From NCBI GenBank assembly GCA_964591275.1, contig CAZQAE010000015.1:2625-66624 (forward strand): a stretch of DNA of 64,000 nucleotides, read 5' to 3'. Source of the stretch: an uncultured bacterium (GTDB lineage: Bacteria; Lernaellota; Lernaellaia; JACKCT01). Positions within the stretch are counted from its first letter, which is position 1; every line of letters starts with the position of its first letter. A program made the translations under genes and the position numbers. Under the pieces are notes generated by a model. It worked only from the letters and a program-made list of their open reading frames with translations, was not told where the DNA came from and did not search any database. Below are positions 1,121-50,788 of this stretch, piece after piece.

Positions 1121-1348
1121 GATGCGAAGCCTCAGCAAAAGTCTGATCCCCTTTGTGGTCCCCCGTGAACCCGCCGGAATAATAGCAGGGAAACGCCGAA
1201 AATCAAGATTCCATTTGGCAACGGTGTTTTCAGCACTTGATTCCGGGTCCGTTGGAACTTAAAATGCGTAATTGCATTCGCCGGGCAACGTGGTAAAATC
1301 AGCGGCATGATGATTTCGCCCATCAGGCATTTGTATGCGAGGAACCCA

Positions 1349-2269
1349 ATGAATCGATACTATATCGCAATTTTAACGACCTTGTTTTTCATTTCAATGA
1401 TGGCTCAACCTGCGTGCACGGGAAATTCTTCCTCCGGCACGGCCGACGATGATGACGACGGGGAAGATATTGACGACGACGACAATGACGACGACGAATG
1501 CATCCAGTGCGAGGACATAGCGGAATGCCTTGATGCGCTCGGGCAAGGTTGGATGTGTCTGGACCATTGCTGTGTGCCCATTGGAGACGACGATCTCAAC
1601 GACGATGTGAATGATGACGCAGACGATGATGTGGATGACGATACCGATGATGATGCTGACGATGACGTCGACGACGATGCCGACGATGATGCCGATGACG
1701 ACATTGATGACGATGCCGACGATGACGTAGATGATGATGTCAACGATGATGTCGACGACGACATTGATGATGATCTGGGTGATAAGGAACTGCGGATCAC
1801 GCTGGTATGGGGATATTCCCCCAGGGATTTAGACCTGCATATGTGGGCGCCGCACACGGGCTGCGAACAGGAAAATCCCTTTCATCTCTATTATCCTGAT
1901 TCTGGAGTACACGGTCACGGCTGCTGGGAGGATTTCGCTTTAGAGCTTGATGACACGTCAAGCTACGGCCCGGAGATCATCGGAATATACGATCCGGTCC
2001 CCAATGAAGAATTTCGCCTGCTGGTCCATGACTATTCGGATATGCAGTGCTCTCCATTAGATTGCGATAATATGTCCAATTCTGATGGGCTGTCGGTTAG
2101 AGTCCGGTCCCAGGACGATTCCTGGGAATTCACAATGCCTCCCAACACGCACGCCAACCTCTGGCAGGTGTTCAACGCCGTGTACAACGGCGATCAATGG
2201 ATAGTTTGGGGAGTCGCCGACTATTGCTTCGGGCCGAGTTCGGCCAGTGTTTACGGATGCGACGGGTAA
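1349..2269 (+). CDS. Asp-rich secreted/lipoprotein with YfaP/DUF2135-like C-terminal domain
   Basis: Hydrophobic N-terminus ending QPAC; long (DDDx)n tract; LRITLVWG..DLDLH..LELDDTSSYGPE motif typical of YfaP-like domains; GAGG RBS before ATG 1349. Confidence 0.75.
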   Translation: MNRYYIAILTTLFFISMMAQPACTGNSSSGTADDDDDGEDIDDDDNDDDECIQCEDIAECLDALGQGWMCLDHCCVPIGDDDLNDDVNDDADDDVDDDTDDDADDDVDDDADDDADDDIDDDADDDVDDDVNDDVDDDIDDDLGDKELRITLVWGYSPRDLDLHMWAPHTGCEQENPFHLYYPDSGVHGHGCWEDFALELDDTSSYGPEIIGIYDPVPNEEFRLLVHDYSDMQCSPLDCDNMSNSDGLSVRVRSQDDSWEFTMPPNTHANLWQVFNAVYNGDQWIVWGVADYCFGPSSASVYGCDG

Positions 2270-9770: not shown

Positions 9771-9975
9771 TCACCGGACGGTGAAGCGATCCCGTGAAGT
9801 AATTGTCGGGAGAGGCAGTCCTTTCGGTAATGACATAAATTATACCGTTATTGACTTTGTTGTCTTGCACTGCCAAGCTGTCCAATGTCGTTGGGTGTGC
9901 GGCACAAAAGTGGGTTTAATAAGAATCCCTTGAAAAAATGCGAGGAATTTGTAGTACATCATGGCAAAGTATGTT

Positions 9976-10185
9976 GCCCGTCAGGGCAAAGCAGAAATAG
10001 CTCACAGCGTGAGCTGTGGGGAAGCGGAATATCTTAAGACAAAAAAAGCCCATGAAATGGGCGAAGGAATTGTGTTACGACTCGTTTTTGTGCGTCGCCC
10101 ATTTCATGGGCTAAAATTATTTTGCGGTCCCTGATTTCCACAGCTTGCGCTGTGGGCTATTGCCGCATCGCCTGTTTCACAGGCT
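9976..10185. repeat. Composite palindromic REP/BIME-like element
   Basis: AGCCCATGAAATGGGCGA (10047) / TCGCCCATTTCATGGGCT (10095) perfect IR; ATAGCTCACAGCGTGAGCTGTGG / CCACAGCTTGCGCTGTGGGCTAT outer IR; terminal small hairpins. Confidence 0.8.
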
Positions 10186-10278
10186 GATAATGAGGTTATT
10201 GTTTTGATTCCACAATTTGAAGAAAATGAAAAACTCACTTGCAGTGACGTACACCCATCGTTGTTGATTGCTTAAAGG

Positions 10279-11151
10279 ATGACAAGTTCAATGTCCGATT
10301 CCGATGATCGTTTTCTTCGTATTGCAAAACTGGGCAAGCGCTTTGGCGACGGGCAAAATCTCGTGCAGGCTTTCGAAGACCTGGACCTTGATGTCCACAA
10401 GGGCGAGTTCCTGTGTCTGGTCGGCCCTTCGGGCTGCGGCAAGACGACCTTGCTGCGCACGCTGGCCGGCGTGGAGAAGGCGAGCACGGGAAATTTCTCG
10501 GTTGACTGGAGCGACAAAGACAAAACGACGCCCCTGTCGATGGTCTTTCAGCAGCCCGGTCTCTATCCCTGGATGAGCGTCGAGGGCAATCTTCGCTTTG
10601 TGCTCAATGCAAGCCCCATCGAAACCGAACGCCACGATGAGATCATTGCGAGCTTCATCGAGCGCGTGGGTCTGACAAAGTTTCGCAGCTTCCATCCTCA
10701 TCAGCTTTCCGGCGGAATGAAGCAGCGCGTTTCGCTGATACGAGCTTTTTGCGTTTATCCGCAATTGCTGCTGATGGACGAACCTTTCGTTTTTCTCGAC
10801 TACCAAAACCGCATGATACTGCATCAACTTCTTCTCGAACTCTGGCAGGACCAGCGCCAGACCATCATCTTCGTCACGCACAACATCAACGAAGCGGTGA
10901 CGTTGGGCGACCGCGTGATGGTGATGACAGCTAGTCCGGGACGTTTTAAGCGAGAAGTTGTTTGTGATTTCCCGCGACCGCGCGACGTGGTGGAGCTTCG
11001 TAAAAACGCCGATTTCGGCCAGACCGTCGTGGAGATCACGGAGGATTTGAAAGAGGAAATCGAGCGAGCGCAGGCCATGGAAATCGCTGGGCGCGCTGAT
11101 CCTTTCCATATAGACGGCGCCTCGCCCCGCGCGCGTGGATTGGATGTCTGA
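10279..11151 (+). CDS. ABC transporter ATP-binding protein, NitT/TauB/SsuB family
   Basis: GPSGCGKT, LSGGMKQR, LLMDEPF, FVTHN. Confidence 0.93.
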   Translation: MTSSMSDSDDRFLRIAKLGKRFGDGQNLVQAFEDLDLDVHKGEFLCLVGPSGCGKTTLLRTLAGVEKASTGNFSVDWSDKDKTTPLSMVFQQPGLYPWMSVEGNLRFVLNASPIETERHDEIIASFIERVGLTKFRSFHPHQLSGGMKQRVSLIRAFCVYPQLLLMDEPFVFLDYQNRMILHQLLLELWQDQRQTIIFVTHNINEAVTLGDRVMVMTASPGRFKREVVCDFPRPRDVVELRKNADFGQTVVEITEDLKEEIERAQAMEIAGRADPFHIDGASPRARGLDV

Positions 11152-11923
11152 AATGCCGACGTTGCCAAGACGGATAAAAGAACTGCGCTATAAAATCATC
11201 TACGTCGCCAGCCCCATTTTCCTGTTGGCGTTATGGGAATTCAGCGCCCGCATTGGCCTCATCGATGCGCGGTTTTTTCCACCGCCCTCGTTGATCATCG
11301 CGCAGTTCGGCCCGCTTTTTCTGGAAGAAAATTTTCACGTCGATATCGGCTCCTCGATGTGGCGAATCACTGCGGGAGTCGCTCTGGGTTTTATTCCCGG
11401 CGCCATCCTGGGCATGATCATGGGTTTTTCGCGCCTGGCCCAGGCGTTTTTTTCGCCGATTGTGGCGCTCACGTACCCGATTCCCAAAATCGCCATTTTG
11501 CCCCTGCTTTTGATCATCTTTGGCTTAGGCAATATGTCCAACATCATGGTGGTGGCCATCGGTGTTTTCTTTTTGTCGCTCATCAACACGAAAGCCGGCG
11601 TCGCGCAGATCCCGAAAATCCACTTTGAGGTGGCCCGCGTTTTTCGAGTCAGTCGTTCGCAAATATTTCTGCGCATTGTACTGCCCGCCAGCCTCCCCGG
11701 AATTTTTACCGGCTTGAAGCTGGGCGTGGGCTATGGCCTGATCCTCATTGTCGCCGCGGAGATGGTGGCCGCCAACTCGGGGATCGGCTACCGCATTTGG
11801 TTGAGTTGGGAACTCTACTTGATAAAAGACATCTACGCCTGCCTGATCACCATTTCCATCATCGGCATCCTCCTTTCCGTCAGCCTGGACAAGCTCGAAG
11901 AAAAGATCGTCCACTGGAAATAG
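11144..11923 (+). CDS. ABC transporter permease, TauC/SsuC family
   Basis: PPPS, PIPKIAILP, VLPASLPGIFTGLKLG, VAAEM motifs; overlaps upstream stop. Confidence 0.92.
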   Translation: MSEMPTLPRRIKELRYKIIYVASPIFLLALWEFSARIGLIDARFFPPPSLIIAQFGPLFLEENFHVDIGSSMWRITAGVALGFIPGAILGMIMGFSRLAQAFFSPIVALTYPIPKIAILPLLLIIFGLGNMSNIMVVAIGVFFLSLINTKAGVAQIPKIHFEVARVFRVSRSQIFLRIVLPASLPGIFTGLKLGVGYGLILIVAAEMVAANSGIGYRIWLSWELYLIKDIYACLITISIIGILLSVSLDKLEEKIVHWK

Positions 11924-12038: not shown

Positions 12039-12162
12039 ATTTTCCGCGCGCCTTTTCACGCATTGTCCGCGCATCGATAATTGTGATATTATCAATCGTT
12101 CGATAATTGGGGCTTTTTGTGTGCGGGATTGTATATTCAATGATCTTGCTTCGGAGGTAATA

Positions 12163-13767
12163 ATGCGCCGCTTATCTTTGATGAAAATTGCACTGGTCGC
12201 TTTGGTGTCCATCCTTTTCGCTTTGCCGCTTTCCTGCGGCGATGATGACGATTCTGCGGATTCCGAGGACAGCGACGCAGACGATGACATTGATGATGAT
12301 ATAAACGACAACTCGGATGACGATGCAAATGACGATTTGAACGATGACATGGATGACGATGTGGACGACGACATGAATGACGATGCAGACGATGACCTAA
12401 ACGACGATTTGAACGATGACGCAGACGACGATGTGGATGACGACACCGACGATGACGCCGATGATGATACACAAGAGTGCATCGATGAGGACGGCGACAC
12501 GTATGGAGAAAATTGCCACGCCGGTCCAGATTGCGACGACACGGATTTTCTAATCCACCCCGGCGCTCCGGAATTGCCCGACGATGGCATTGATCAAAAT
12601 TGCGATGACTTCGATCTGTTGCTAGGAGATGACACAGGTGTATTTGTTGCGAAAACGGGTAATGATGCGAATCTCGGCACCATGGTCGCTCCCAAGTTAA
12701 CGATCAATGCAGGCACGACTCTTGCTGCACAAACGAGCAAATCAGCCTTCATCGCCGAAGGGGATTATTCTGAAGATGTGGAAACACAAGTCTCACTCTT
12801 CGGAGGTTATGAGTCTGCAGGCTGGACAAGGGATATTGAAAACAACGTTACATTGATAAACGCTTTGTTGTCCGCAGCCGTATCAGTGAGCGAGAACCCG
12901 AACCAGGATCGATGTGACAACTCGGATGGTAGTAGGGATGATGTGAAGGCAGATAATCCAATCCACGTAGCTATTCAAGGGTTTACCATCGACGGCGGAT
13001 CACCAAATGGATACTACACTGCCAGCGTAGGCTTGGCCAACCAAGGAGCGGCAATGCTGGCTAATAATACAATAAATGGCGGATCAGGAGGTGCTAATAG
13101 TTACGGTGTATTCAATGATGGTTATTTGACATTTCTTAACAATCGCATTAACGGCGGATCCGGAGACTGGAGCCAAGGTGTGTTTAGTATACGGGGCACA
13201 ATGGTTTTAGTGAATAATATAATCGACGGCGGATCTGGAATCTCATCTAGCTGCGGTGTGAGCAACTCCGATACTTTAATATTGGCGAATAATTTCATCA
13301 ACGGCGGCTCGGGAAGCATTGTCAGTATCGGTATTATGAACATCTTAGGCGTTGCCACACTGACAAATAACATTATAAGCGGCGGATCGGGAAACACTAG
13401 CTACGGCATTAATAACGGCTGGCCCGACTCGGTTGAGCTAGTGAATAACAATATCTGGGGAGAACAACAGGACTATCTAATGCTCAGCGATTCGACATAC
13501 ATCACATTGCTCGCAGAAATAAATAATTGCGCCTGGGCCGGTTGCGCCGTGGCGTCGAGTAACATCAGCGAAAATCCGCTCTTTATAGATCCGGCCAGCG
13601 ATGATTTTCATCTTCAGAATTCAAGCCCATGCATCGATACCGGCATTGATCCGGTGGCTTACATCAATAATTCGAGTTATTTACACATCGATTTCGAAGG
13701 CGATCCCCGCCCCCTTGGCGCCGGTTGGGACATCGGCCCAGATGAGTGGTGGCCGGCAAGCGAGTGA
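12163..13767 (+). CDS. Asp-rich lipoprotein with MopE-like metal-binding motif and parallel beta-helix
   Basis: GGAGGT RBS; lipobox PLSC; (DDDx)n; [21 protein letters not shown]; [10 protein letters not shown]; NNxIxGGSG repeats; C-terminal [22 protein letters not shown]. Confidence 0.85.
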
Positions 13768-17902: not shown

Positions 17903-18253
17903 ATGATTTTTTCGCCAGCTCGTTTCAGGAATATTTTTAGGATGCTCAGTCTGATTTTATCAATCACCGCCCTTGCCGTATGTTTCTGGTTTTCGCTGTC
18001 ATGCGACGATGACGACGATGATGATGACAACGACGATGGCGACGATGACGACGATGACGACGACGTTTCCGCCGAGGACAAAGCGGAAATCGCCTGCCGA
18101 AAAATTGACGAGTGTGGATTCACCGGCGATCTCGGGATAAGCGATTGCGAAGATTATGCCGATGGCCTCAGTGATTGGCTCATGCAGTGCGCACTAGGCG
18201 CCAAGGGCTGCGGTGATCTGGCCGAGTGCTTCAACATCCCCGAAGGGCAGTGA
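17903..18253 (+). CDS. Small Asp-rich lipoprotein with Cys-rich domain
   Basis: Lipobox SLSC followed by a poly-Asp run, then a 6-Cys domain; start may be 17942. Confidence 0.75.
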   Translation: MIFSPARFRNIFRMLSLILSITALAVCFWFSLSCDDDDDDDDNDDGDDDDDDDDVSAEDKAEIACRKIDECGFTGDLGISDCEDYADGLSDWLMQCALGAKGCGDLAECFNIPEGQ

Positions 18254-18445: not shown

Positions 18446-19912
18446 ATGAAATATTTGAAATTTAACGCGACCCTGATTTGCACTATTCTGATTTTCTTTA
18501 CTGCTGCAGCGCAGTCCGCAATGCTTTCCACGTCCCCGGAGACACTGGTTGAAAGCGCCGATGTCATCGTGCGCGGCTTTGTCGTCGCCACGCGAACCGC
18601 GCCGGGCGAGCGCGTGGGCGACATCGAAACGCTTGTGGATGTCCACATTGCCGAAAGCATCAAAGGGCAGGCTCCGCCGGATTTCACGCTGACTGTTCCG
18701 GGCGGCGCTTTGGACGGGGAATTTTATTTCATCACCAATTATCCCGACTTCGAACAGGGCCAGGAGGTCGTTCTTTTTCTGAACGAATCCCTGGAAAAGC
18801 TTGTCGGTCAAATAATGGGAAAAGCAACGCTGGAATCCGGCATGGTCGCGGAAACGATGCTCGGCGCCGAAGAGTATGTCAAATCGCTCAAGCGCATGGC
18901 CAGAGGCCAGGCGCCGATTGTGGATATTGATGCGCATTTTGCGCCGTCCTCCTCCATTGACGGATATGTCCGACGACTGGGCGGAAAATTTGCCTACGAT
19001 GGTCTGCATTGGGATTCCCACAGCGTCCAAATCTATATCAACGAAAACTGCTCTGACACTTCAGGAGAAGGCGACGCCATCCGCCGGTCGATGAGCACAT
19101 GGAATTCCACCCCCGCTGATTTTCGTTTCATAGACAACGGTACGCATTCCCGCAATCAGACCGAGCTTAATAACCGCAACGAAGTGATGTGGGGTTCGGG
19201 TGATTCCGAACAGGCTATCGCGTACACGGCTATTTGGGGTTACGACGACAACACCATCGCTGAATGCGACATGCTGTTTTTGGACTCTTATAACTGGTCG
19301 GCGCAGGGAAATCCCGGATACAACGAGATGGACGTTCAAAACATCGCCACGCACGAATTTGGGCACTATCTTTGTCTCCTGGACCTCTATAATAACTGGG
19401 ATTCGGAAAAGACCATGTATGGCTATGGCCAGACGGGCGAAACGCAAAGCCGCACTTTGCATCAGGACGACATCGATGGCATCGTTCATATCTACGGTTC
19501 AGGCCCATCCACCGATGATGATTCCGACGACGACGATTCCGACGACGACAGCGATGACGACAGCGACGATGATTGGTGGTCGGATGACGATGACGATGAC
19601 GATGACGACGATGCGTGGTCGCCGGATGACGATAGCGAAACCGACTGCGGATCCATCCTCTCGCTTTTATACGAGGACTGCGGATATTACATCGTCGCAT
19701 CAGGCAACCAGTGGACCGGTGCCGAGGCCATGGACGCCTGCGAGCAGGGAAACAGTTCATGGGATTGCGTCATGGAATGTTCGACCAACGACAACGTGAG
19801 CAATTGTTCGACTTTCACTCAATGCTTCGAAAGCGTTTGCGGCGTCATCACAGCTAACGGCGATAGCTCAGGCGATGATGACACCGCAGGCCAGGGCAGT
19901 TGCGGTTGTTGA
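18446..19912 (+). CDS. Secreted matrixin-like (metzincin) metalloprotease with Asp-rich linker and terminal CGC
   Basis: SPI-type signal; DVQNIATHEFGHYLCLLD; Met-turn KTMYG; LHQDDIDG; ends GDDDTAGQGSCGC*. Confidence 0.85.
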   Translation: MKYLKFNATLICTILIFFTAAAQSAMLSTSPETLVESADVIVRGFVVATRTAPGERVGDIETLVDVHIAESIKGQAPPDFTLTVPGGALDGEFYFITNYPDFEQGQEVVLFLNESLEKLVGQIMGKATLESGMVAETMLGAEEYVKSLKRMARGQAPIVDIDAHFAPSSSIDGYVRRLGGKFAYDGLHWDSHSVQIYINENCSDTSGEGDAIRRSMSTWNSTPADFRFIDNGTHSRNQTELNNRNEVMWGSGDSEQAIAYTAIWGYDDNTIAECDMLFLDSYNWSAQGNPGYNEMDVQNIATHEFGHYLCLLDLYNNWDSEKTMYGYGQTGETQSRTLHQDDIDGIVHIYGSGPSTDDDSDDDDSDDDSDDDSDDDWWSDDDDDDDDDDAWSPDDDSETDCGSILSLLYEDCGYYIVASGNQWTGAEAMDACEQGNSSWDCVMECSTNDNVSNCSTFTQCFESVCGVITANGDSSGDDDTAGQGSCGC

Positions 19913-20066: not shown

Positions 20067-21566
20067 ATGCACCTGGCGATAGTCTATATGGGGCGCGAAA
20101 GCGTCGAACTCGAATATATATCCGCAACGCTCAAGCGCGCGGGCCATTTAATAAGTTTTGCTTACGATCCGGGCGCATACACCGCCATCGACAACGTGGC
20201 GAACATTCCTTTTCTCGCCGAAAAAATGTCGCGGAAGTCGGCTCTAATCTCCCGGATCGTTGCCGACAATCCCGATGCTCTGTTTTTTTTCACCGACAGC
20301 GATACCTATCAATGGTCCCTCGACATCGCGCGGCAGGTTCGGCGGCATCTCATTGCGCCGATCATCTTTGGCGGGCGTCATCCGACCTTCGCGGCCCATG
20401 CGGTTATGAAGCATTCCCTTGTGGACTATATCGTGGTCGGCGAGGCCGAGGAAACGCTTCCAGAGTTGTTGGACTTGATCGCCGGGCGAAGGAAAGCGGA
20501 ATCCGTGCGCGGCATCTATTATCGGGACGGCCAAAAGGTTTTGGAAACCGGATTGCGCCCGCCTCTGGCGAACCTGGACGAACTTCCCTTGCCGGACAAG
20601 GAACTTTTCGCCGCGGAAATCAACATTCGAGACGATTATATGCTCCTGGTCGGACGCGGCTGCCCCGGCTCATGCACATACTGCCGGGAGGGAACGCTTC
20701 GGCGAATGTTCGGCGGCAAATACATTCGACGCAGAAGCGTTGAGTCGGTCCTGCGTGAACTTGAAGTCATGAAAAACCGCTACGATTTTTCTTTTGTGAT
20801 GATCAATGACCCCGTTTTCTTTACCTCAAAGAAATGGACCCTGGAACTTCTGCGCGGCTACAAAAAGCGCATTGGCCTGCCCTTTCGCTGCTACGGCCAG
20901 ATCAAATACCTGGACGTCGAGCTTGTGCTGGCCTTAAAAAACGCGGGCTGTTACGGCGTGGAGTTCGGTTTGCAGACGACCAACGACGAGATGCGCCGCG
21001 ATATCCTCAACCGCCCGGAAACTCTCGAAGAAGCGAAAAAAGCCTTTGCCCTCTGCGACCGGTGGAGACTTCATTACGACGTCGATCACATTTTCGGGCT
21101 TCCCGGCGAGACGGACAAGGATTGCGTTGACGCCGCGCGCTTCTATGCCGACTGTGCGTTTCTCAACCGGGTGAAGGTCCATATGCTGGTGCATTTTCCC
21201 GGCGCGCCGATCATAGACATCGCCGAAAAGATGGGATTGGCGAGCGGCGAAGACAGGCGGCGAGCCGAGGAGGGCGAGGTTGGCGACATCTGCCGGACCG
21301 GCAGCGTCAATCGCCCGGATGTGCGGCGGCATGTTTTCGAGTGGAAAAATTTCTACAAGCTCATGCCTCTTTTCCCCAAAAGATTGTCGGGCTTCATAAT
21401 CGATCGGGGCGCAAACCGTCTGCTAGGAAATATTCCGCATTATTTTATGATCACGTTGCAAATTCTCGTGGCGATTCATGGTGGCGACTGGCGATTCTGG
21501 ATTTACATCAAGTATCATATTTTCCGTTTTCGCAGACATCGCCGATTTAAAGAAGGCCACGGATGA
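20067..21566 (+). CDS. B12-binding domain radical SAM protein
   Basis: IIFGGRHPT, VGEAEE, GRGCPGSCTYC, IFGLPGET. Confidence 0.9.
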   Translation: MHLAIVYMGRESVELEYISATLKRAGHLISFAYDPGAYTAIDNVANIPFLAEKMSRKSALISRIVADNPDALFFFTDSDTYQWSLDIARQVRRHLIAPIIFGGRHPTFAAHAVMKHSLVDYIVVGEAEETLPELLDLIAGRRKAESVRGIYYRDGQKVLETGLRPPLANLDELPLPDKELFAAEINIRDDYMLLVGRGCPGSCTYCREGTLRRMFGGKYIRRRSVESVLRELEVMKNRYDFSFVMINDPVFFTSKKWTLELLRGYKKRIGLPFRCYGQIKYLDVELVLALKNAGCYGVEFGLQTTNDEMRRDILNRPETLEEAKKAFALCDRWRLHYDVDHIFGLPGETDKDCVDAARFYADCAFLNRVKVHMLVHFPGAPIIDIAEKMGLASGEDRRRAEEGEVGDICRTGSVNRPDVRRHVFEWKNFYKLMPLFPKRLSGFIIDRGANRLLGNIPHYFMITLQILVAIHGGDWRFWIYIKYHIFRFRRHRRFKEGHG

Positions 21567-22489: not shown

Positions 22490-23569
22490 TTATTGGCAAT
22501 CCGCGCTTAGCTCGAAAAGCCCTGCGTCCATGGGGATGCTTCTCTTGCCGTCAACGACGACATAATAATTGCCAAAGGGCAGGCTTCCCAGCGAAAGTTC
22601 GTCGTGGCCCGGTTCATCAACGCCGTCCTCGGTTGACGAAAGCACGCACGATGCGGAACTCGCGTAGTCAGTCACAATCAGGATGTCCAGATCAATGGCC
22701 AGCGGTCCCGGCGTCCATGTCAGGGACAAGGTCATGTTATTGTCCCAGACCTCGAAAAAGTAGACGCTGTCGGGTGCGTCGTGGAGCCACTTTCCCCACC
22801 ACCAGGTTGTTATGCATGAATAATCCTCCAGAACATTTTGCTGCCAGAGGTTGTTGCCGCTTAAGGTTTCGCCGCAATACAAAACATCAAGGGCGCCATC
22901 CGGGCTGGCGACGCATTCATCGGTGTTTTCCAGACACATTCCCCAGAGGCCGCAGGGATAGCCGTCCGGGTCGCAGTGATTGAGCTGCTCGTTGCATTCG
23001 CCGCCGTCGCAATACAATCCGTTTGTACTCGGGCAGTCCGGCTCGTTGCGGCGCATGCACGAATCTGTTAGCTCGTCGCAATATTCCTCGCCGTTGCAAT
23101 AGGCGTCGTCATTGGGGCAGGGATCGTCCCCGTGCCGGCAGGTTCCGCCCTGACAGGCATCGGCGCCGTTGCACCACAACCCATCTTCGCACGAAGCGCC
23201 GTCGTCGTTGGTCCACGAGATTTCGGACAGACTAACATCGCAGACTTTGCAGGCGTTGCCGGGATTCACTTCACCGTCGTCAAAGCAGGTGTTGTTGATC
23301 AGGCAGCCCTCGCAGCCGGTGTTGTCGTCGTCTGCATCATCGTTAACATCGTCGTTGACGTCATCGTTCGCATCATCGTCCCAAAGATCGTCGTCGCCGT
23401 CATCACCCGCGTCGTCGTCCGGCAATGTCAGGTCATCGTCGGTCGCGGTGTCGTTGTCGTCGTTATCGTCGTCATCGTCGTCGCCTCCGCCGCAGGCGAC
23501 CGCGATTACGCCGACCGCCAGAATGAGGCAAAGGAGCATTGTGAGAACCCAACCATTAATCTTCATCAT
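22490..23569 (-). CDS. Asp-rich lipoprotein with Cys-rich repeats and PPC-like C-terminal domain
   Basis: Lipobox AVAC-GGGDDDD; C.DG.WCNG...C repeats; DLDILI..GNYYVVVDG. Confidence 0.8.
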   Translation of the reverse strand: MMKINGWVLTMLLCLILAVGVIAVACGGGDDDDDDNDDNDTATDDDLTLPDDDAGDDGDDDLWDDDANDDVNDDVNDDADDDNTGCEGCLINNTCFDDGEVNPGNACKVCDVSLSEISWTNDDGASCEDGLWCNGADACQGGTCRHGDDPCPNDDAYCNGEEYCDELTDSCMRRNEPDCPSTNGLYCDGGECNEQLNHCDPDGYPCGLWGMCLENTDECVASPDGALDVLYCGETLSGNNLWQQNVLEDYSCITTWWWGKWLHDAPDSVYFFEVWDNNMTLSLTWTPGPLAIDLDILIVTDYASSASCVLSSTEDGVDEPGHDELSLGSLPFGNYYVVVDGKRSIPMDAGLFELSADCQ

Positions 23570-27570: not shown

Positions 27571-28848
27571 CTAACGAACGCAGCTCACCCGAAGATCAAG
27601 TGCTTCATCCACGTTCACGATCTCACCGGAACTAAATTCGAGGGCCCATATTTTGCCGGGAAGGTCTGAAACACCAGACAATGACCAATACCAATCCTTG
27701 TAGCCCGACATTTCTTGAGGCCAGTATCGCCCTCCCGAACCCGGACCCTCCTGAAACGGGCATCCGTCACATGCGGAGTCTCGGCAATTTCCAAGTTGCA
27801 GACATTCATCGGTCACGCCGCATTCGCCACCCGTCTCTGCGGCGGGACATCCACGCACAAGGCTGCGCAATTCCGAAATCGTGGGAAGCCGCCAATTAGA
27901 ATAACCGTCCCAATCCAGAATTTGACAGTAAAGCTGAGCGTCCGAGTGATTATATGATTCCGTTCCGACTGATAAACCGGTCATCCATGTAAATCCCGAT
28001 TCTGAATCGATCCAACGGTCAATGGGGCACCCCCTGACAGCATTAGTCGTATTTGCGTAGCAATACCTGTCAACGGGATTAAACTCCCACCAACTCCCAT
28101 TAAACCGGGCCGCAAAAACATCCCACTGCGTCGCGGAAGTGCCGACGGGCATGTGAAACTCCCGGTAAGTATCTGACGTCGTCGCCACCACTTTTAAATT
28201 CGCAGAATTGGACATCTGATAACAGGGGGGATTGCAACTCATATGGTTCGAATAATCATGAACAAGGATATGATAATCGAGATCGATCATCGGCTCCCAA
28301 ATCATAATGGTTTCCGGTCCATAGCTCGACGTATCGTCCAGCGTCAAAGCGAATTGGTTATAACAGCCATGTCCGATGCCTACGTCGGGATAAAAAAGGT
28401 GAAATGGATTTTGATCTTCGCAACCATCGTGAGGCGCCCACATGTGGAGATCGAGATCAGAAGGAGAAGCTCCCCATGTCAGATCGATACGCATGACGCC
28501 CGGAGGCACTGAGGCCGTACTCGTCGTGGTCGACGTTGATGTCGTGGTCGTCGTAGTTGATGTTGTAGCAGGTGTAGTACTGGTGGTTGTGGTGGGAGGA
28601 ATGGAATCGTCGTCGTCCACATCGTCGTCGTCCACATCGTCGTCCACATCGTCATCGTCCACATCATCATCAACGTCGTCATCGTTCACATCATCATCAA
28701 CGTCGTCATCGTTCACATCATCATTCACATCGTCGTTAGCGTTGTCATCGCTCTGCTCTGATTTTGTCGAAGGGGCATCACCGCACGCCGTGACAAATCC
28801 CAGCGAAATAATGAAAACTGAAATTAACACCCATTTCCAAATTTTCAT
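27571..28848 (-). CDS. Asp/Thr-rich lipoprotein with YfaP-like and DUF1566 (Lcl C-terminal) domains
   Basis: Lipobox VTAC; Asp and Thr tracts; DLDLH..DDTSSYGPE; WRLPTISELRSL..YWS..VSCVR. Confidence 0.82.
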   Translation of the reverse strand: MKIWKWVLISVFIISLGFVTACGDAPSTKSEQSDDNANDDVNDDVNDDDVDDDVNDDDVDDDVDDDDVDDDVDDDDVDDDDSIPPTTTTSTTPATTSTTTTTTSTSTTTSTASVPPGVMRIDLTWGASPSDLDLHMWAPHDGCEDQNPFHLFYPDVGIGHGCYNQFALTLDDTSSYGPETIMIWEPMIDLDYHILVHDYSNHMSCNPPCYQMSNSANLKVVATTSDTYREFHMPVGTSATQWDVFAARFNGSWWEFNPVDRYCYANTTNAVRGCPIDRWIDSESGFTWMTGLSVGTESYNHSDAQLYCQILDWDGYSNWRLPTISELRSLVRGCPAAETGGECGVTDECLQLGNCRDSACDGCPFQEGPGSGGRYWPQEMSGYKDWYWSLSGVSDLPGKIWALEFSSGEIVNVDEALDLRVSCVR

Positions 28849-29253
28849 GGATTCCTCCATTTATAATCTTATGCATTATACCAGGATTATTTGGCGAAGG
28901 GAAACGCCTGGTGAGCCGCTTTTCTTTTGGGAGCGTATCAGGGCACAAGGGCCGGGGCCTGATAACGGTCGCCGTCAAACGTAACGTGAGCATTGTCGCG
29001 AAATGCGATGCCCTTTCTTGCTATTGGCTGTTTGTCCTTTTAATATCTCTTCTGCAGGTGTCGGCTCAAAAGTGAAGCGGTCGGCGGCAAGTCCGAAACC
29101 GTTCAAAATGTGCGACACTCAATGGAAATTTCCCGTCTTGCGGCCAGGAGGCTTTAAGCCGGGAGAAAAGTGCGCCGGATTAGAAAAAAAAGGATTATAT
29201 TAATTCAAAATTCGCCGGAATTTGAACCGGCCATGCGGCGCGAGGGGTTCTTG

Positions 29254-31746
29254 ATGAAAATAACGATACGGTCGTCTCGTCCATCCGCCGTCGCGATTGT
29301 TTGTTTCGCCGCGTTTATCTTGGCGGCTTCTCAAGGCCTCGCCGCTTCTGTGATCTATTATGAAAGCCCTGACGACGCCGGGGTCGGCGTCATGGAAGCC
29401 AACATGCTTCTGAATCTGGTTGGGCATTTCGACGCATCCATCACGCAGCGAAATATCCGCGACTATCAAGCCGGGGATCTGGCACATTTCGATCAGGGAT
29501 ATTTCATTGGCACGGGCAACGGCGATTCCATCCCCGCCGCTTTCTTCGACGACCTGGTTATCGGCGCGCGTCCCTTTATGTGGATCGGCGCGAACTTTGA
29601 TCGCCTGACGACTTACGTGGGCGGTAGCGGGCCCTTCGGTTTTGAGTTGCTCAACTGGACATCAGGCGACGGATTCGATCTTGTCCGCTACAAGGGGCTG
29701 TCGATCCCGCGCATTTCCGACCTGTCTTTTTATGAAACGGCCATCACCGGCGCGCCGACCGTGCACGCCCTGATCGCCTCAACAACTGGAGATGACACAT
29801 TCCCCTATTTCCTTTGTGGCCAAAACCTTTGCTATCTGGCCGACGATCCGATGTACTTTTACGGGACCGACGACCGTCCCTATGTCCTCGCCGATCTTTT
29901 GCATATCTTCAACAATACCGGCATCGGTGAGGTGAAGCAGGCCATGGTGCGTTTCGAGGATGTGGCGCCCGTCGTCAATGATTCGGTCGTCTTGCAAACA
30001 TTCGCGCAGACTTTCGCGGACCGGAATATTCCCTTTTCCGTGGGCGTCATTTCCATTTATAAGGACCCCCTGGGGCAATATTTCCCCCCGGATTCGGAAT
30101 TTCATTTTTCCGACGACCCGGCCTTCGTTGCATTTCTGAACAATATGCAAACCCAGGGCGGCACTCTCATCATGCACGGCGTCACGCACCAGCACGACAA
30201 CGGCATTACGGGCAGCGATTGGGAGTTCGTGCAGGACTACTGGGCCGCCCCGCTGCCCTATGATTCAGAGGAATGGGTCCGAAACAAAGTGGAAACGGGC
30301 TTCGATGAATTTAACGGCCAGGGCTGGAGCCCCTGGATATGGGAAACGCCGCATTACGCCGCCTCCCACGGCGACTACCTGATCATTTCAGATTATTTCG
30401 ATGTATGTTTTGAGTTTCCGTTGGTATTTCCGGTGCGGGTTGACGCGGCGCCGATCTTTGTCACGGACCTTTCGCCCACAAGCCAGATCGTCCCCTTTTT
30501 CACGGCCACGGGTTCGTCGAACATGGCCATTTTGCCCATGACCCTGGGTTACATCGACAACAGCACGCCCACGCAAACACCCGAGGCCCTTCTGGAAATG
30601 GCTGATCACCTAGCCATCGTTCGCGACGGCGTGGCATCGTTTTTCTTCCACCATCTTGAAGTCTCTGTTGAGGACGTGATGACCATCGTGAACGGTCTTG
30701 AGGACAGGGGTTATGTCTTCGTCGGACCGGAGGCCTTCATCGACGCGCCGACCACAACCACCACGACTTCGACAACGACCACCAGCACTACCACGACGAG
30801 CACAACAACAACTTTGCCGCCGACAACAACTTCAACAACGACAACAGTTGCTCCGCCTACGACAACATCTACCAGCGTCACTCCGACGACGACCAGCACG
30901 ACGACGACGACTACAACGACAATTACGACACCGACAACGACGAGCAGCACGACGACGAGCAGCACGACGACGACGACCGGCGTCGAGCCGACGGATCCCG
31001 TTGTGACCGTCACCTCTCCTGATTGCATCGAACCTGGAGAACCGGCACATCTCACAGTGCGCGTGGATTACTTCGTCCCGGACGATCAGGCCCTCATTGC
31101 GGTGCAGTTCCAACTGGGCTGGAGTTGGACATTAATTCAGGCCTATCTTCCTCCGACCGGCAGTATCCCCGGCGCATGGAGCGCCAATAATCCCCATAGC
31201 GACATCGTCAACTGGGTTTTCAACGCGACGAGCGAGTTCGGCGGCGGCACAGTGAACGGCGAGACGGTCACCTTCGAGTTGGACGTCCTGGTCGGGACCG
31301 ATGTCGGCGACACGAACGTTCTTGTCGCCTTATACGGAGACGAGAACGGGGCACCGCCTTACGATTGGGGCCCCATTACATTCAACTTCGACCTGTGCAT
31401 CCCGACGACAACGACCTCCACGACTTCAACGACAACAACAACTTCAACAACAACGACTCAGCCGCCTACAACAACCACAATCGGGACAACGACAACAACG
31501 ATTTTCGCGGACGACGACGTTGACGACGACGCGGACGATGATCTGAATGACGATATGGACGACGACGTTGACGATGACGCAGACGATGACGCAGACGATG
31601 ACGCGGATGATGATCTAAACGACGATTTTGATGACGATGCTGATGATGATTTTGCTGATGATGACTCAGATGATGACAGCTCAACAATCCCGGATGATGT
31701 TGAAGGCGACGATGACGATGATTCAGGACCTTGTTGCGGCGGGTGA
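29254..31746 (+). CDS. Secreted DUF2334/polysaccharide-deacetylase-like protein with Thr- and Asp-rich tracts and terminal CCGG
   Basis: SPI signal; VRFEDV, MHGVTHQ, WETPHYAAS, VRDGVASFFFH; ends DDDDDSGPCCGG*. Confidence 0.82.
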   Translation: MKITIRSSRPSAVAIVCFAAFILAASQGLAASVIYYESPDDAGVGVMEANMLLNLVGHFDASITQRNIRDYQAGDLAHFDQGYFIGTGNGDSIPAAFFDDLVIGARPFMWIGANFDRLTTYVGGSGPFGFELLNWTSGDGFDLVRYKGLSIPRISDLSFYETAITGAPTVHALIASTTGDDTFPYFLCGQNLCYLADDPMYFYGTDDRPYVLADLLHIFNNTGIGEVKQAMVRFEDVAPVVNDSVVLQTFAQTFADRNIPFSVGVISIYKDPLGQYFPPDSEFHFSDDPAFVAFLNNMQTQGGTLIMHGVTHQHDNGITGSDWEFVQDYWAAPLPYDSEEWVRNKVETGFDEFNGQGWSPWIWETPHYAASHGDYLIISDYFDVCFEFPLVFPVRVDAAPIFVTDLSPTSQIVPFFTATGSSNMAILPMTLGYIDNSTPTQTPEALLEMADHLAIVRDGVASFFFHHLEVSVEDVMTIVNGLEDRGYVFVGPEAFIDAPTTTTTTSTTTTSTTTTSTTTTLPPTTTSTTTTVAPPTTTSTSVTPTTTSTTTTTTTTITTPTTTSSTTTSSTTTTTGVEPTDPVVTVTSPDCIEPGEPAHLTVRVDYFVPDDQALIAVQFQLGWSWTLIQAYLPPTGSIPGAWSANNPHSDIVNWVFNATSEFGGGTVNGETVTFELDVLVGTDVGDTNVLVALYGDENGAPPYDWGPITFNFDLCIPTTTTSTTSTTTTTSTTTTQPPTTTTIGTTTTTIFADDDVDDDADDDLNDDMDDDVDDDADDDADDDADDDLNDDFDDDADDDFADDDSDDDSSTIPDDVEGDDDDDSGPCCGG

Positions 31747-31764: not shown

Positions 31765-32676
31765 TTATTCCTCCAGAATCTCTTCTGAGCCGAACTGCTC
31801 AATTTTAAGATGCGGGTAGATGTCGTTTAGTTCCTTGATGAAAATATCGGCAATAACCTGGTGGCCAAATTCCGTGGCGTGGAGAAAATCGAGTCTGATC
31901 ACGTCGAAAAACCCAATCTTTACTCCATCGTAGAAAACCCGCCCGCCCAGCAGCGCGTCCATATAATAATCAAAATCGATCAACCGAGCGCCGGGGCGTT
32001 TGTCAATCTCTTCCTGCATAATCTCCAGCACCCTGTCTTTGTCGCCAAAAAACCCGGCCATGTTCATGAGCATTTTGGGGATGTTGCCGCCAATGAAGGT
32101 TTCCCCTTCTTCCAGGCCGGTTTCGCCATAGATGTTGTCCAGGTAATCTGAAAATTTCCCCCGGATGACTTCCTCGGAAGAAGTAAATGACAACGACCAG
32201 AAAAATGCGTCTATTGCCAGAGAAATCGTCGTATCGGCAGTGATCCTGTCGGATTCGTCATCCCAGTAGATCCAAAACTCCGGCTCGTAATCAACGCACT
32301 GCCCCAAATTTATCCATGCCCGCTCAATAGCTTTGGCATAGTAAAATTCGGCGGTTTGCTCCATCCCAAAGGGCGGAGAACCGGAAGTCGGGTTGCTGTA
32401 GCTTGCGCCGGCGATGAAGACCTTTTTGAACAGATTCATTTCCACATCCGTCAGGTCATCGCAGGAAAAGGGTCCATCGTCATCGGAATCGTCGTTTAGG
32501 TCATCATCTGCGTCATCGTCATCAGACGCGTTGTCGTCATCATCGTCGCTGGTATCGTCGTCTTCGGTTGCGTTGCCGGAATCATCATCATCGTCTTCGC
32601 CTGATGAACAGGATAAGAACAGGGAGGAGAAAAGAAGCAACACGATGCTTATTGCGAAAAAAGTTTTTGCGCTCAT
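31765..32676 (-). CDS. Asp-rich lipoprotein with divergent SGNH-like hydrolase domain
   Basis: Lipobox FLSC; GASYS block I and DFLHATEFGHQVIA block V. Confidence 0.6.
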   Translation of the reverse strand: MSAKTFFAISIVLLLFSSLFLSCSSGEDDDDDSGNATEDDDTSDDDDDNASDDDDADDDLNDDSDDDGPFSCDDLTDVEMNLFKKVFIAGASYSNPTSGSPPFGMEQTAEFYYAKAIERAWINLGQCVDYEPEFWIYWDDESDRITADTTISLAIDAFFWSLSFTSSEEVIRGKFSDYLDNIYGETGLEEGETFIGGNIPKMLMNMAGFFGDKDRVLEIMQEEIDKRPGARLIDFDYYMDALLGGRVFYDGVKIGFFDVIRLDFLHATEFGHQVIADIFIKELNDIYPHLKIEQFGSEEILEE

Positions 32677-32859
32677 GAAGCTCCCCAATATGAGTGATTC
32701 TCATTTTAATCCAAAAACGACCCTTAAAAACAGTAGCCAAGCCACAAGGGAAAAGCAAATTACCAGAGACCGACAGGATCATGAAGATATAGTGTCCCAG
32801 GTGTTTTGCAACCAGGTCATCCGGCATCTATCAAAACATTATTCTTGGCCTGTACGGTT

Positions 32860-49249: not shown

Positions 49250-50788
49250 TTAATTCAAAAAAAAGCGCAGATACTGCGTGATTCCCGTAACGGCGACTTC
49301 CACTTCGCCATTTTCCGAAATGCCGCTTTCGATCTCATCGCCGCTTTGATCGAATAAGGTCCATGAACCATCGGTGCCCGCCGGAAGCGGAACGACGATG
49401 TTTTTCTCTTCCCAAATGGCCGGTCCGCCCCGCCACAGAGCAACAGTCCACATTCCTTGGTCGTCAGCGAAAACCAGGGCGTACACGTTGGTGTCCAGGT
49501 ACAACGCCGGGCGTAAATCGCCGGCGTAGCGAGAGTCGCCAAGCAGGCGATGCGCGCCACGAAGAGCCAGAAAGGACTCCTTGGCTTCTGTGTCTTGCGT
49601 GTCGCCCGGATAAGTGAACAATCCAAAATAATCTTCGGTCGGCAAAGACGCGCCGCCGGAGCCGTCCCAGAATGTGTACCAATCATAAATCTCAATGTCG
49701 TTAGCCAATGCCATCATCATGCTGTGCGCCAGGTATGCCGCCTGCCGCTGGTCGCCGATAATGAGGCTCGGCCAACCCATCTCCGTGAACTGCAGGCGCT
49801 TGTCCGGGCAGCCGATGTCGGCCAGCGTTGATCGGGCCAGATCAATGAAACCGACCGTCGTCGGAAAATGGTAGATGCCCAGGTCCAGGTCAAACTCCGG
49901 GCTGGGCTGCTGTAAGAAGGTGTAGGGATGGATGGACAAGACGTCGAAATAATCGCAAATGTCCGGATGAAATTCATGCACGCGATGAATGAAATTCCAG
50001 ATGCCTCGTGGATCGAAAAAGTTCACTTCCAGAGGCGACAATCCGCCAAAGATCACGCTCGCGTCGGGATCATTGTCGTGAACCGATTCATATACGGCTT
50101 TAAGCAATTCGCCGTACTTATCAGGATTCGGTTCCGGCTTCCAGAATCGCGTCGTGTTCTGCTCGTTCCAGAATTCGTAGTGATCAATCCGATCCGCAAA
50201 ATGCTCGGCGACCTTGCCTGTGTAGTCGGCGTATTGCGCCGGATCGATTTCATCGGCGGTCCCACCGGGCGTCGCCCAGTCCGGGCTTCCCAGGAAGATG
50301 GCGGTGACATCCAGCCCGGAGGCGAGGCACAAATCCGTCATGGTGTCGAGGCCGTCAAAGTTCCATACATCGTCTTCGGGCTCGATGCTGTACCAGTGAA
50401 AATCGGTTCGTACCATTTTCACACCGGCTTCCACCAGTTTTTCAATCTCGAATTCCCTCTTCCAATTATACGCCGCCCCACGGCTCATATGGCTGGAGAT
50501 GCCGAGGATTTCATCAAGCGTTCCGCCACCGGGAGTCATTTCGGCATAAGGATCGACAGGCGCAGTATCGTCATCATCGACATCGTCGTTGAGATCATCG
50601 TTCACGTCATCATCGTTGTCATCGTTTAGATCGTCATCGACATCGTCATTTACGTCGTCATCATTCGGGACATCGTCGCTATCATCATTATCATCGTCGT
50701 CATCCCCACATCCGACGACGGGAAAAACGAAAACCAAAAGCACAAAAATTGAAGCGAAAATGTGCCAGCAACTTGCGTCTCGTGTCAT
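49250..50788 (-). CDS. Asp-rich lipoprotein, clan GH-A glycoside hydrolase (GH39/GH5-like)
   Basis: Lipobox VVGC; (DDDx)n; EFWNEQN acid/base, SIHPY, TEMGWP nucleophile. Confidence 0.82.
   Translation of the reverse strand: MTRDASCWHIFASIFVLLVFVFPVVGCGDDDDDNDDSDDVPNDDDVNDDVDDDLNDDNDDDVNDDLNDDVDDDDTAPVDPYAEMTPGGGTLDEILGISSHMSRGAAYNWKREFEIEKLVEAGVKMVRTDFHWYSIEPEDDVWNFDGLDTMTDLCLASGLDVTAIFLGSPDWATPGGTADEIDPAQYADYTGKVAEHFADRIDHYEFWNEQNTTRFWKPEPNPDKYGELLKAVYESVHDNDPDASVIFGGLSPLEVNFFDPRGIWNFIHRVHEFHPDICDYFDVLSIHPYTFLQQPSPEFDLDLGIYHFPTTVGFIDLARSTLADIGCPDKRLQFTEMGWPSLIIGDQRQAAYLAHSMMMALANDIEIYDWYTFWDGSGGASLPTEDYFGLFTYPGDTQDTEAKESFLALRGAHRLLGDSRYAGDLRPALYLDTNVYALVFADDQGMWTVALWRGGPAIWEEKNIVVPLPAGTDGSWTLFDQSGDEIESGISENGEVEVAVTGITQYLRFFLN

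Follow-up and report, generated by a model that had tools for sequence, protein, structure and literature searches.

What is the role of a tract of aspartates that runs into one or more cysteines at the very end of an exported protein? The question is raised by two proteins, a DUF2334-domain protein and a matrixin-like metalloprotease, encoded in a 64,000-nucleotide stretch of DNA (the window) from an uncultured bacterium of the candidate phylum Lernaellota (assembly GCA_964591275.1, contig CAZQAE010000015.1, positions 2,625 to 66,624). A preliminary description of the window had singled out these two as its Asp-rich proteins with signal peptides of the signal peptidase I (SPI) type, and had read their Gly/Cys ends, which lack a transmembrane (TM) helix, as a possible lipidation or disulfide-tethering signal. 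The ends of both open reading frames (ORFs) bear out the Gly/Cys tails. We find that the same tail recurs on over a hundred ORFs of this genome, that it is confined to the extreme C-terminus and to this phylum, and that it shares its signature with the three-part, helix-containing signals of the MYXO-CTERM type encoded alongside it, of which it is perhaps a helix-less derivative.

Two exported proteins with a terminal Cys tail

The window belongs to contig C15 of a 5.34 Mb genome in 166 contigs (G000; 91% complete), and the features that define the two tails are as follows.

29254..31746 (+): DUF2334-domain exported protein (PF10096, 8.9e-41), with a signal-like start, Thr-rich linkers, an Asp tract and a terminal Cys tail
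31507..31722 (+): Asp-rich linker of the DUF2334 protein, with DDDx periodicity, ending GDDDDD
31723..31746 (+): terminal S-G-P-C-C-G-G and TGA stop of the DUF2334 protein, with no TM helix downstream
18446..19912 (+): matrixin-like (M10) metalloprotease (PF00413, 5.9e-8) that opens with an SPI-like signal, has an Asp tract in its interior (about 19505-19650) as well as a Cys-rich module, and ends in a tail
19871..19912 (+): terminal G-D-D-D-T-A-G-Q-G-S-C-G-C and TGA stop of the matrixin-like protease

The longest ORF of the DUF2334 gene spans 29170-31746 (+), and its likely true start, the signal-peptide-like MKITIRSS..., lies at 29254. Its C-terminus reads ...DDVEGDDDDDSGPCCGG and that of the protease ...GDDDTAGQGSCGC, each directly before the stop. 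Both proteins have SPI-like signals and neither contains a lipobox; the linker at 31507..31722 has the same composition as the linker behind the lipobox Cys of about 250 lipoproteins of this genome. Long linkers rich in Thr, Ser and Pro precede the Asp tract of the DUF2334 protein (30778-31090 and 31402-31500 of the window) and of many further tail proteins, and may be O-glycosylated spacers.

A position-specific motif across the genome

The genome was represented by a six-frame, greedy set of the longest non-overlapping ORFs of at least 100 amino acids (4194 ORFs; no gene finder), with signal peptides called by a crude heuristic. The Asp and Thr tracts themselves give rise to spurious long ORFs rich in Ser, Val or Arg in other frames or on the opposite strand (in the window 28442-28984 (+), 30698-31006 (+), 30711-31055 (-) and others), so that ORF-based counts in this genome need them filtered.

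Between 108 and 114 of the 4194 ORFs end in poly-Asp, [G/S][G/S/A]-C-[C/G]-[G/C] and a stop. Acidic C-terminal ends are found in 217 ORFs, 115 of which have a Cys among the last 6 residues, and 114 ORFs fit the alignment D(5-8)-[DEGS]-[GS]-[GSA]-C-[GC]-[GC]-end. The commonest endings among these 114 are CGC (27), CCG (22), CG (8), CCGC (7) and CGF (5), and the first Cys lies at position -3 in 57. The genome-wide scan proposed in the preliminary description thus finds a tail that is not rare: a regular expression recovers 111 at true ends as against 7-12 when the sequences are cut 10-90 residues short of their ends (pseudo-ends), an approximately 10-fold excess, and 20 shuffles of the last 25 residues yield a mean of 26.75 and a maximum of 36. 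The core motif [DE]3-x(0-5)-[GSA]C[CG][GC] lies at most 3 residues from the C-terminus in 49 of its 52 occurrences, and one of the other three precedes a helix and basic tail. The only clearly internal copy (C27:30866-33361 (-), ...DDDDDDESSCCGCSSSSSGG...) stands 172 residues before the end, is followed by more Asp/Thr tracts, and may be a relic of a fusion or of read-through. Profile searches of the tail proteins showed the tail to be covered by no NCBIfam or Pfam model.

An N-terminal signal-like segment was called in 103 of 118 tail ORFs as compared with 1948 of 4076 others by the crude heuristic; the 15 that lack one include evident fragments. The payloads are hydrolases, namely GDPD, phosphatase, S8, trypsin, neprosin, M14, M10 and DUF2334 proteins.

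Distribution in the phylum and conservation among orthologs

Seventeen species genomes of Lernaellota (FEN-1099) were compared with 24 genomes of other phyla. DDD-x(0-4)-CGC-stop is present in all 17 (reversed-pattern controls 0), and DDDD-x(0-5)-CCG-stop in 12 of the 17 and none of the 24. The favored ending differs between lineages, being mostly CCG in G008 and mostly CGC in family f4. One member, G014, has a single DDD-x(0-4)-CGC match, and the D/N tract of the one tail examined in it is looser; its 36 GCGC-stop matches as against 5 for the control nevertheless rule it out as a tail-free genome. A scan of 185,579 species for DDDDxxCCG-stop returned 28 stretches, 21 from four metagenome-assembled genomes of the phylum and 7 singletons elsewhere; of these singletons 5 are preceded by an in-frame stop no more than 50 codons upstream and all lack a long Asp tract, and they look like chance matches. 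In five genomes of Myxococcota, Bradymonadia and Oligoflexales, GCGC-stop shows no enrichment over the reversed-pattern control (10 against 7, 6 against 5, 3 against 2, 1 against 0 and 3 against 0). An origin of the tail by chance or from low-complexity sequence is ruled out by the pseudo-ends, the shuffles, the reversed-pattern controls of 0 and the scan of species.

The tail is also retained in orthologs. All 7 orthologs of the matrixin-like protease (35-70% identity to the window protein), the six from other genomes among them, end in a TM-less Cys tail, and the acidic tract with a terminal Cys is kept in 21 of 21 evaluable DUF2334 homologs from 11 phylum genomes, a count that leaves out L096 and L099 (wrong-frame ORF, not evaluable) and L100 and L109 (split gene in G015). 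A distant group of DUF2334 paralogs outside this count (L101, L110-L113) comprises four proteins that read as helix-ended and one, L112, for which a wrong-frame ORF was taken. The linker and the exact ending vary among orthologs (CCGG, CGFL, CGA, CGC, ICG), and in one from G005 (L006/L090) a Thr/Ser/Pro-rich linker replaces almost the whole Asp tract (...TTTTDEGDGGGSVCGA). Given that orthologs swap endings, the constant part is one Cys after small residues, 1-3 residues from the end. A longer, conserved 13-residue end, WPEGKVTGGCCGC(E), is shared by 18 ORFs of the window's genome, which argues for recognition by a protein. In the extended form [DE][DE]xGWPEGKVTGGCCGC(E) it is found on unrelated payloads, many with Cys-rich GDPC/GNPC repeats, and occurs in 6 of the 17 phylum genomes, all of families f1 and f2. 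Examples from the window's genome are:

C29:5627-7150: ORF with the extended end
C65:23997-25082: ORF with the extended end
C3:61280-63193: ORF with the extended end
C33:1205-3046: ORF with the extended end

Both window tail genes stop at TGA, which might raise the suspicion that the tails are broken MYXO-CTERM genes, or that a recoded stop or a frameshift hides a helix downstream. Read-through would add 13 codons to the DUF2334 protein and 5 to the protease, none of them hydrophobic, and the 114 tails use the three stops (49 TGA, 44 TAA, 21 TAG) in proportions similar to those of the genome (1796, 1497 and 901). A helix-plus-basic stretch within 165 nucleotides downstream, in any frame, was found for 3 of 89 tail genes and 6 of 600 controls, none of them resembling the signal, in agreement with the earlier observation that the tails have no TM helix. 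With tails in all 17 independently assembled genomes and preserved in orthologs, we consider such an artefact virtually inconceivable.

An N-terminal mirror image of the tail

In seven further ORFs of the window an Asp tract follows a lipobox Cys, as the preliminary description had stated:

17903..18253 (+): lipobox Cys directly followed by poly-Asp (FSLSC-DDDDDDDD), the N-terminal mirror form
31765..32688 (-): lipobox Cys then Asp tract (LFLSC-SSGEDDDDD), convergent to the DUF2334 gene and ending 18 nt after 31746
27571..28860 (-): lipobox Cys (FVTAC-GDAPS...) then a long DDDV/DDDD tract
22490..23569 (-): lipobox Cys then Asp tract (IAVAC-GGGDDDDDD)
49250..50788 (-): lipobox Cys then Asp tract (PVVGC-GDDDDDNDD)
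12121..13767 (+): lipobox Cys then Asp tract
1307..2269 (+): exported Asp-rich protein whose lipobox (AQPAC-TGNSS) is only a possible one, making it the least convincing of the seven

Across the genome, the N-terminal logo of 250 such lipobox-polyAsp ORFs, [ASG]-C-G-D-D-D-D, is the mirror image of the tail logo, D-D-D-D-G-G-C-[GC]-[GC]. In the former, A precedes the Cys in 114, S in 73 and G in 63 (position -1), G follows it in 145 (position +1), and D occurs at positions +2 to +8 in 123-177; in the latter (114 proteins) the residue before the Cys is G in 55, S in 15 and A in 12, and that after it G in 55 and C in 44. The 80 residues adjoining the Cys contain a median of 29 and 30 acidic residues in the two forms, with a D:E ratio of about 5-6 in both. 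As in the lipoprotein export signal (LES) of Bacteroidota, acidic residues in the N-terminal lipobox-Asp proteins lie within a few positions of Cys +1. For sixteen tail proteins a paralog of the lipobox-polyAsp kind exists (E<1e-20).

The two forms tend to avoid each other. Of 203 lipobox-polyAsp lipoproteins 2 have a tail, as against 96 of the 1917 remaining ORFs whose N-terminus includes a hydrophobic segment (odds ratio (OR) 0.19, p=0.005), and the depletion persists when multi-TM proteins are left out (OR 0.15, p=0.0005) and with an independent heuristic (OR 0.20, p=0.0016). The earlier claim that the reversed order is confined to non-lipoproteins therefore stands as a statistical tendency and not as a rule, with 2-3 proteins genome-wide carrying both the tail and a lipobox with poly-Asp.

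This depletion bears on the idea that the tail is only an outer-membrane export tag, which a type II or some other secretion system would recognize in order to release the enzyme, with nothing attached to the tail. The cell is diderm and encodes two secretins and three Omp85-family genes, and the degradative exoenzymes that make up the cargo would suit such a role. In the available part of PMC11980579, TraA of Myxococcus xanthus that lacks its MYXO-CTERM is released into the medium by way of type II secretion (T2SS). However, an export tag would explain neither why the Cys is invariant nor why the tail mirrors lipidated N-termini, and redundancy of anchors fits the depletion on lipoproteins better. 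Type II signals are not known to take the form of short linear C-terminal motifs, and we consider this alternative distinctly unlikely.

Relation to MYXO-CTERM and myxosortase

The preliminary description had set MYXO-CTERM aside on the ground that its Cys motif is followed by a TM helix and a basic tail. This separation does not hold: the tail amounts to the acidic tract and GCGC of such a signal, and complete three-part forms coexist with it together with a protease of the myxosortase family. A scan of C-terminal helix-plus-basic ends recovered four proteins of the window's genome with an acidic tract, [GSA]C, a spacer, a helix and a basic end. These, and the protease, are:

C2:66692-68449: three-part protein
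C4:126147-127361: three-part protein
C66:9781-10359: three-part protein
C70:8004-8723: three-part protein
C42:25741-26436 (-): CPBP protease of the myxosortase family (NF040914 core, 100.4 bits versus a cut-off of 100)

Ends of this kind from the phylum read ...DDDDDDDGCGC-AVGG...helix...RKK, ...DDNNDDSCGC-TAAP...helix...RRSRK and ...DDSGCGC-STTG...helix...RRRR. The TM-less tails stop directly after the shared signature DDDD-G-CGC, ending 1-3 residues past the Cys with both the hydrophobic segment and the Arg/Lys cluster absent. The protein at C70:8004 scores 18.4 bits against the MYXO-CTERM model TIGR03901.2 as a protein and 22.6 in six frames (cut-off 20), and in a six-frame search this model exceeds its cut-off for 15 of the 17 genomes of the phylum and for 0 of 14 controls; neither window tail protein gives a TIGR03901 match at E<=1.

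The two forms are also linked through their payloads. The window metalloprotease finds its best NCBIfam match, below cut-off, in NF041905 ('myxosortase-dependent metalloprotease MXAN_2677/2678 family', 6.5e-12), and so does its three-part paralog at C4:126147 (GCGC, helix and RRKK), again below cut-off. Likewise, the S8 protease at C2:66692 is three-part and its paralog at C48:34166 TM-less. Each form is stable within orthogroups, and the three-part S8 and metalloprotease genes have three-part orthologs.

The C42 protease also matches MrtP (6.7e-36), MrtC (4.2e-32) and MrtX, and among its 80 nearest relatives outside the phylum the named records are mostly from Myxococcota. The NF040914 core is above cut-off in 12 of the 17 phylum genomes, that of the window included, and in 4 of the 24 genomes from other phyla (G017, G026, G034, G040), which are tail-less and show no enrichment of GCGC-stop. 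The second CPBP protein of the window's genome is MrtA-like (60 bits versus a cut-off of 200) and is present in only 7 of the 17. The protease and the three-part signals place the myxosortase system in Lernaellota, beyond the Myxococcota and Bradymonadales to which MYXO-CTERM is limited in the available part of the Haft preprint, where three-part signals alone are described. A literature search found no description of a helix-less MYXO-CTERM form or of a Lernaellota sorting signal. The proposal of an undescribed TM-less C-terminal Cys signal is thus upheld as regards a real and position-specific motif, which is nonetheless best read as a truncated, phylum-wide variant of MYXO-CTERM and not as something separate from it.

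Possible disulfide or metal chemistry of the tail

Two or three Cys lie within the last 6 residues of 88 of 111 tails, and a single one in 23. In principle a terminal CGC, CCG or CC thiol pair might link the protein to a second copy of itself or to a partner in the envelope, or assist folding by thiol-disulfide exchange. CXC peptides have been reported to mimic protein disulfide isomerase, many payloads contain Cys-rich modules, and the genome encodes a disulfide-forming enzyme of the VKOR family (C24:59486-59881 (+), 56.9 bits, 390-aa open frame), which suggests periplasmic disulfide formation, fitting the many Cys-rich exported modules. The single-Cys tails are at odds with a thiol pair, as are orthologs that switch between two Cys and one (CCGG, CGFL, CGA; SCGC, ICG), and a folding aid would require neither the position within 3 residues of the end, nor the adjoining poly-Asp, nor the depletion on lipoproteins. 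The same motif moreover stands ahead of the helix in the three-part sorting signals. Two members of the phylum live mainly in the anoxic zone of a lake, where external disulfides are less stable (PMC9324843, as far as the accessible portion of that paper goes). On balance we regard a redox or disulfide tail as unlikely.

A metal- or mineral-binding tail, in which poly-Asp (Ca, Mg, Fe) and thiols (Zn, Cu, Fe, Ni) supply the attached metalloenzymes with captured metal or stick enzymes to a mineral or polymer without a covalent anchor, appears very unlikely. Vicinal Cys and long Asp runs are classic metal ligands, and several metalloenzymes are found among the payloads (M10, M14, metallophosphatase). 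The tail is also borne by serine proteases, neprosin and DUF2334 proteins, however, and single-Cys orthologs are common. The conserved 13-residue end and the signature held in common with the three-part signals point to recognition by a protein, and depletion on lipoproteins would not be expected of a metal tag.

Lgt paralogs as candidate enzymes

If the Cys is lipidated, prolipoprotein diacylglyceryl transferase (Lgt) homologs are natural candidates, and the window's genome has three:

C6:10414-11382: Lgt gene
C67:22351-23457: Lgt gene
C115:342-1226: Lgt gene
C6:9403-9813 and 9957-10370, then 10420-11265: two tandem LspA genes directly upstream of one Lgt

An lspA1-lspA2-lgt operon is reported from M. 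xanthus in the available part of PMC8689077. At least 3 Lgt matches are found in 15 of the 17 phylum genomes, and one match in 17 of the 24 from other phyla. A tree of 40 Lgt domains (loci L204-L243) resolves three orthogroups, every one of which contains all 11 of the genomes sampled, and clades B and C are sisters (SH-aLRT 93-100, by a quick method). At least 2 Lgt matches, some of them fragments, occur in all 4 other-phylum genomes with a myxosortase-core match as against 2 of the 20 others, and five Myxococcota, Bradymonadia and Oligoflexales genomes have 2-5. Because the genomes are kin, differ in size and were partly chosen via Mrt proteins, this association of Lgt copies with myxosortase is a lead only; it fits the published guess of an Lgt-like enzyme for the MYXO-CTERM Cys.

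The gene neighborhoods of the Lgt and CPBP genes offer nothing telling. A radical-SAM-like ORF, so named from its motif alone (CxxxCxxC in ...GRGCPGSCTYCREG...), lies at 20067-21566 (+), 155 nt downstream of the matrixin-like gene in the window, and a similar ORF (C6:14008-15423) is found near Lgt.

A possible sorting and anchoring signal

In light of these observations, we propose that the Asp tract with the terminal [G/S]-C-[C/G]-[G/C] constitutes a phylum-specific sorting or anchoring signal, a helix-less derivative of MYXO-CTERM whose Cys is probably S-lipidated, and we give this proposal about an even chance of being correct. An ordinary cleavable signal peptide, as called by the heuristic, would take the protein across the inner membrane by Sec. 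The C-terminal Cys, lying in the same small-residue-Cys-Gly context as the lipobox of this lineage, would then be modified on its thiol, most likely with a lipid, and one of the three conserved Lgt paralogs could be the enzyme responsible. The modification could take place while the C-terminus, which exits the translocon last, has yet to move away from the membrane, after which the protein would be held at the envelope or cell surface through its C-terminus. The poly-Asp run might serve as an extended spacer beside the modified Cys, and possibly as a determinant of surface export like the acidic signal of Bacteroidota. As there is no helix to remove, cleavage by a myxosortase would not be needed.

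Several points weigh against this proposal. Lgt is known to modify a Cys that a signal peptide keeps at the membrane, and the tail is a soluble C-terminus with D, E or G at -3, unlike a lipobox. An altered active site in Lgt clades B and C was ruled out: the variants Y-GG and G-C-x3-G-C-C-Y-G (relative to E. coli Lgt) also occur in clade A and in 3 of 5 outgroup genomes, and, being common to all of these, are no mark of a changed function in B and C. G014, with its sparse Asp-linked matches, also has three Lgt genes, so that Lgt copy number tracks the phylum and not the tail. The presence of a VKOR homolog makes periplasmic disulfide chemistry possible. The signal-peptide heuristic also flags 48% of other ORFs, and the ORF set is a greedy one that does not come from a gene finder. 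With a looser definition of the tail the depletion on lipoproteins becomes non-significant (OR 0.60, p=0.29), with 5 of the 6 overlaps there being Cys ends outside the motif. No myxosortase homolog was found by hidden Markov model and protein searches in G002 or G006, which are 98-99% complete, have many tails and encode three-part proteins. Lastly, lipidation of MYXO-CTERM itself is called 'predicted' in the accessible part of PMC11980579.

The two genomes last mentioned belong to genus g2, where tandem small genes end in DDDD-GCGGCG-helix-SRREGK (G002 C140:7800-9500 and G006 C106:8300-10100; L245, L244). These retained three-part genes rule out a joint loss of three-part signals and myxosortase in the genus, and a dependence of the tails on myxosortase is not supported, given that the tails persist in both.

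A bolder and more doubtful version, which we advance tentatively, would make the system the periplasmic equivalent of lipidation of the CaaX type: a helix-less Cys on more than 100 exoproteins in each genome would be S-lipidated by Lgt clades B and C, with poly-Asp acting as a direction-independent export code (lipobox-C-G-DDDD or DDDD-G-G-C) and the tail having arisen from MYXO-CTERM by loss of the helix, with myxosortase dispensable.

The helix of known three-part signals holds the substrate at the processing enzyme. If the tailed proteins are anchored, their Cys would be modified without need of a helix, which bears on the enzyme and the mechanism behind modification of the MYXO-CTERM Cys. 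Concrete candidates for such an enzyme would be the two additional Lgt paralogs present throughout the phylum. Across a whole candidate phylum, 2-3% of the proteome has the signature motif and nothing more of the three-part signal, and the discovery of the tail comes with the extension of the myxosortase system to a phylum outside those previously credited with it. As a minimal tag of about 10 residues it could, if it works, be used for surface display. Were the tails to prove unmodified, they would still be a strong and unexplained proteome-wide signal in an uncultured lineage.

Comparison with known systems

The N-terminal lipoprotein pathway (lipobox, Lgt, LspA) resembles the tail in having a Cys in a small-residue context followed by Gly. 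The LES of Bacteroidota likewise places an acidic run directly beside the Cys, with C-SDDDD in Bacteroides fragilis and K-(D/E)2 in Capnocytophaga canimorsus (PMC5080379, in its available part). The tail differs from both in that its Cys is C-terminal, has no hydrophobic segment before it and shows D, E or G, not Leu, at -3. The acidic run is also far longer than that of the LES, 80 residues containing a median of about 30 acidic ones.

The eukaryotic CaaX and Rab prenylation signals share with the tail a helix-less C-terminal Cys, endings such as CC, CXC and CCXX with a few of the C-x-x-hydrophobic type (CGLF, CSFL, CGMF), and an Rce1-family protease encoded in the genome. The Rab-like resemblance pointed out earlier proves superficial: tail proteins carry export signals, the first Cys lies mostly at -3, and G or C, not aliphatic residues, come next. 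Protein-prenyltransferase alpha repeats (PF01239) gave 0 matches in the window's genome at its 91% completeness, and the ICMT family a single marginal one (25.3 bits versus a cut-off of 24). Eukaryote-like prenylation is ruled out on the basis of the Cys position, the residues that follow it, export and the lack of a detected alpha repeat.

Other three-part Cys signals also have an invariant Cys in a short C-terminal signature, and there are weak cross-matches to them (C70:8004 to JDVT-CTERM at 13.7 bits; the two CPBP proteins to the MrtJ, MrtS and MrtA models), but in the accessible part of the Haft preprint all of them carry a helix. The closest relative is MYXO-CTERM (TIGR03901) with its myxosortases MrtX, MrtC and MrtP, which are CPBP/Rce1-like. 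The tails differ from it in lacking the TM helix and Arg cluster, in having poly-Asp as the usual linker and in persisting where no myxosortase was found. In common with it they have an invariant Cys, often as GCGC or CC, after a disordered linker, and Sec-exported surface proteins and proteases as targets, dozens per genome. The model put forward in the available part of PMC11980579 has the MYXO-CTERM Cys lipidated by an Lgt-like enzyme, with MrtX cleaving distal to the Cys and with export by the T2SS; lipidation followed by cleavage, as modeled there and in the accessible part of the Haft preprint, would leave an end much like these tails.

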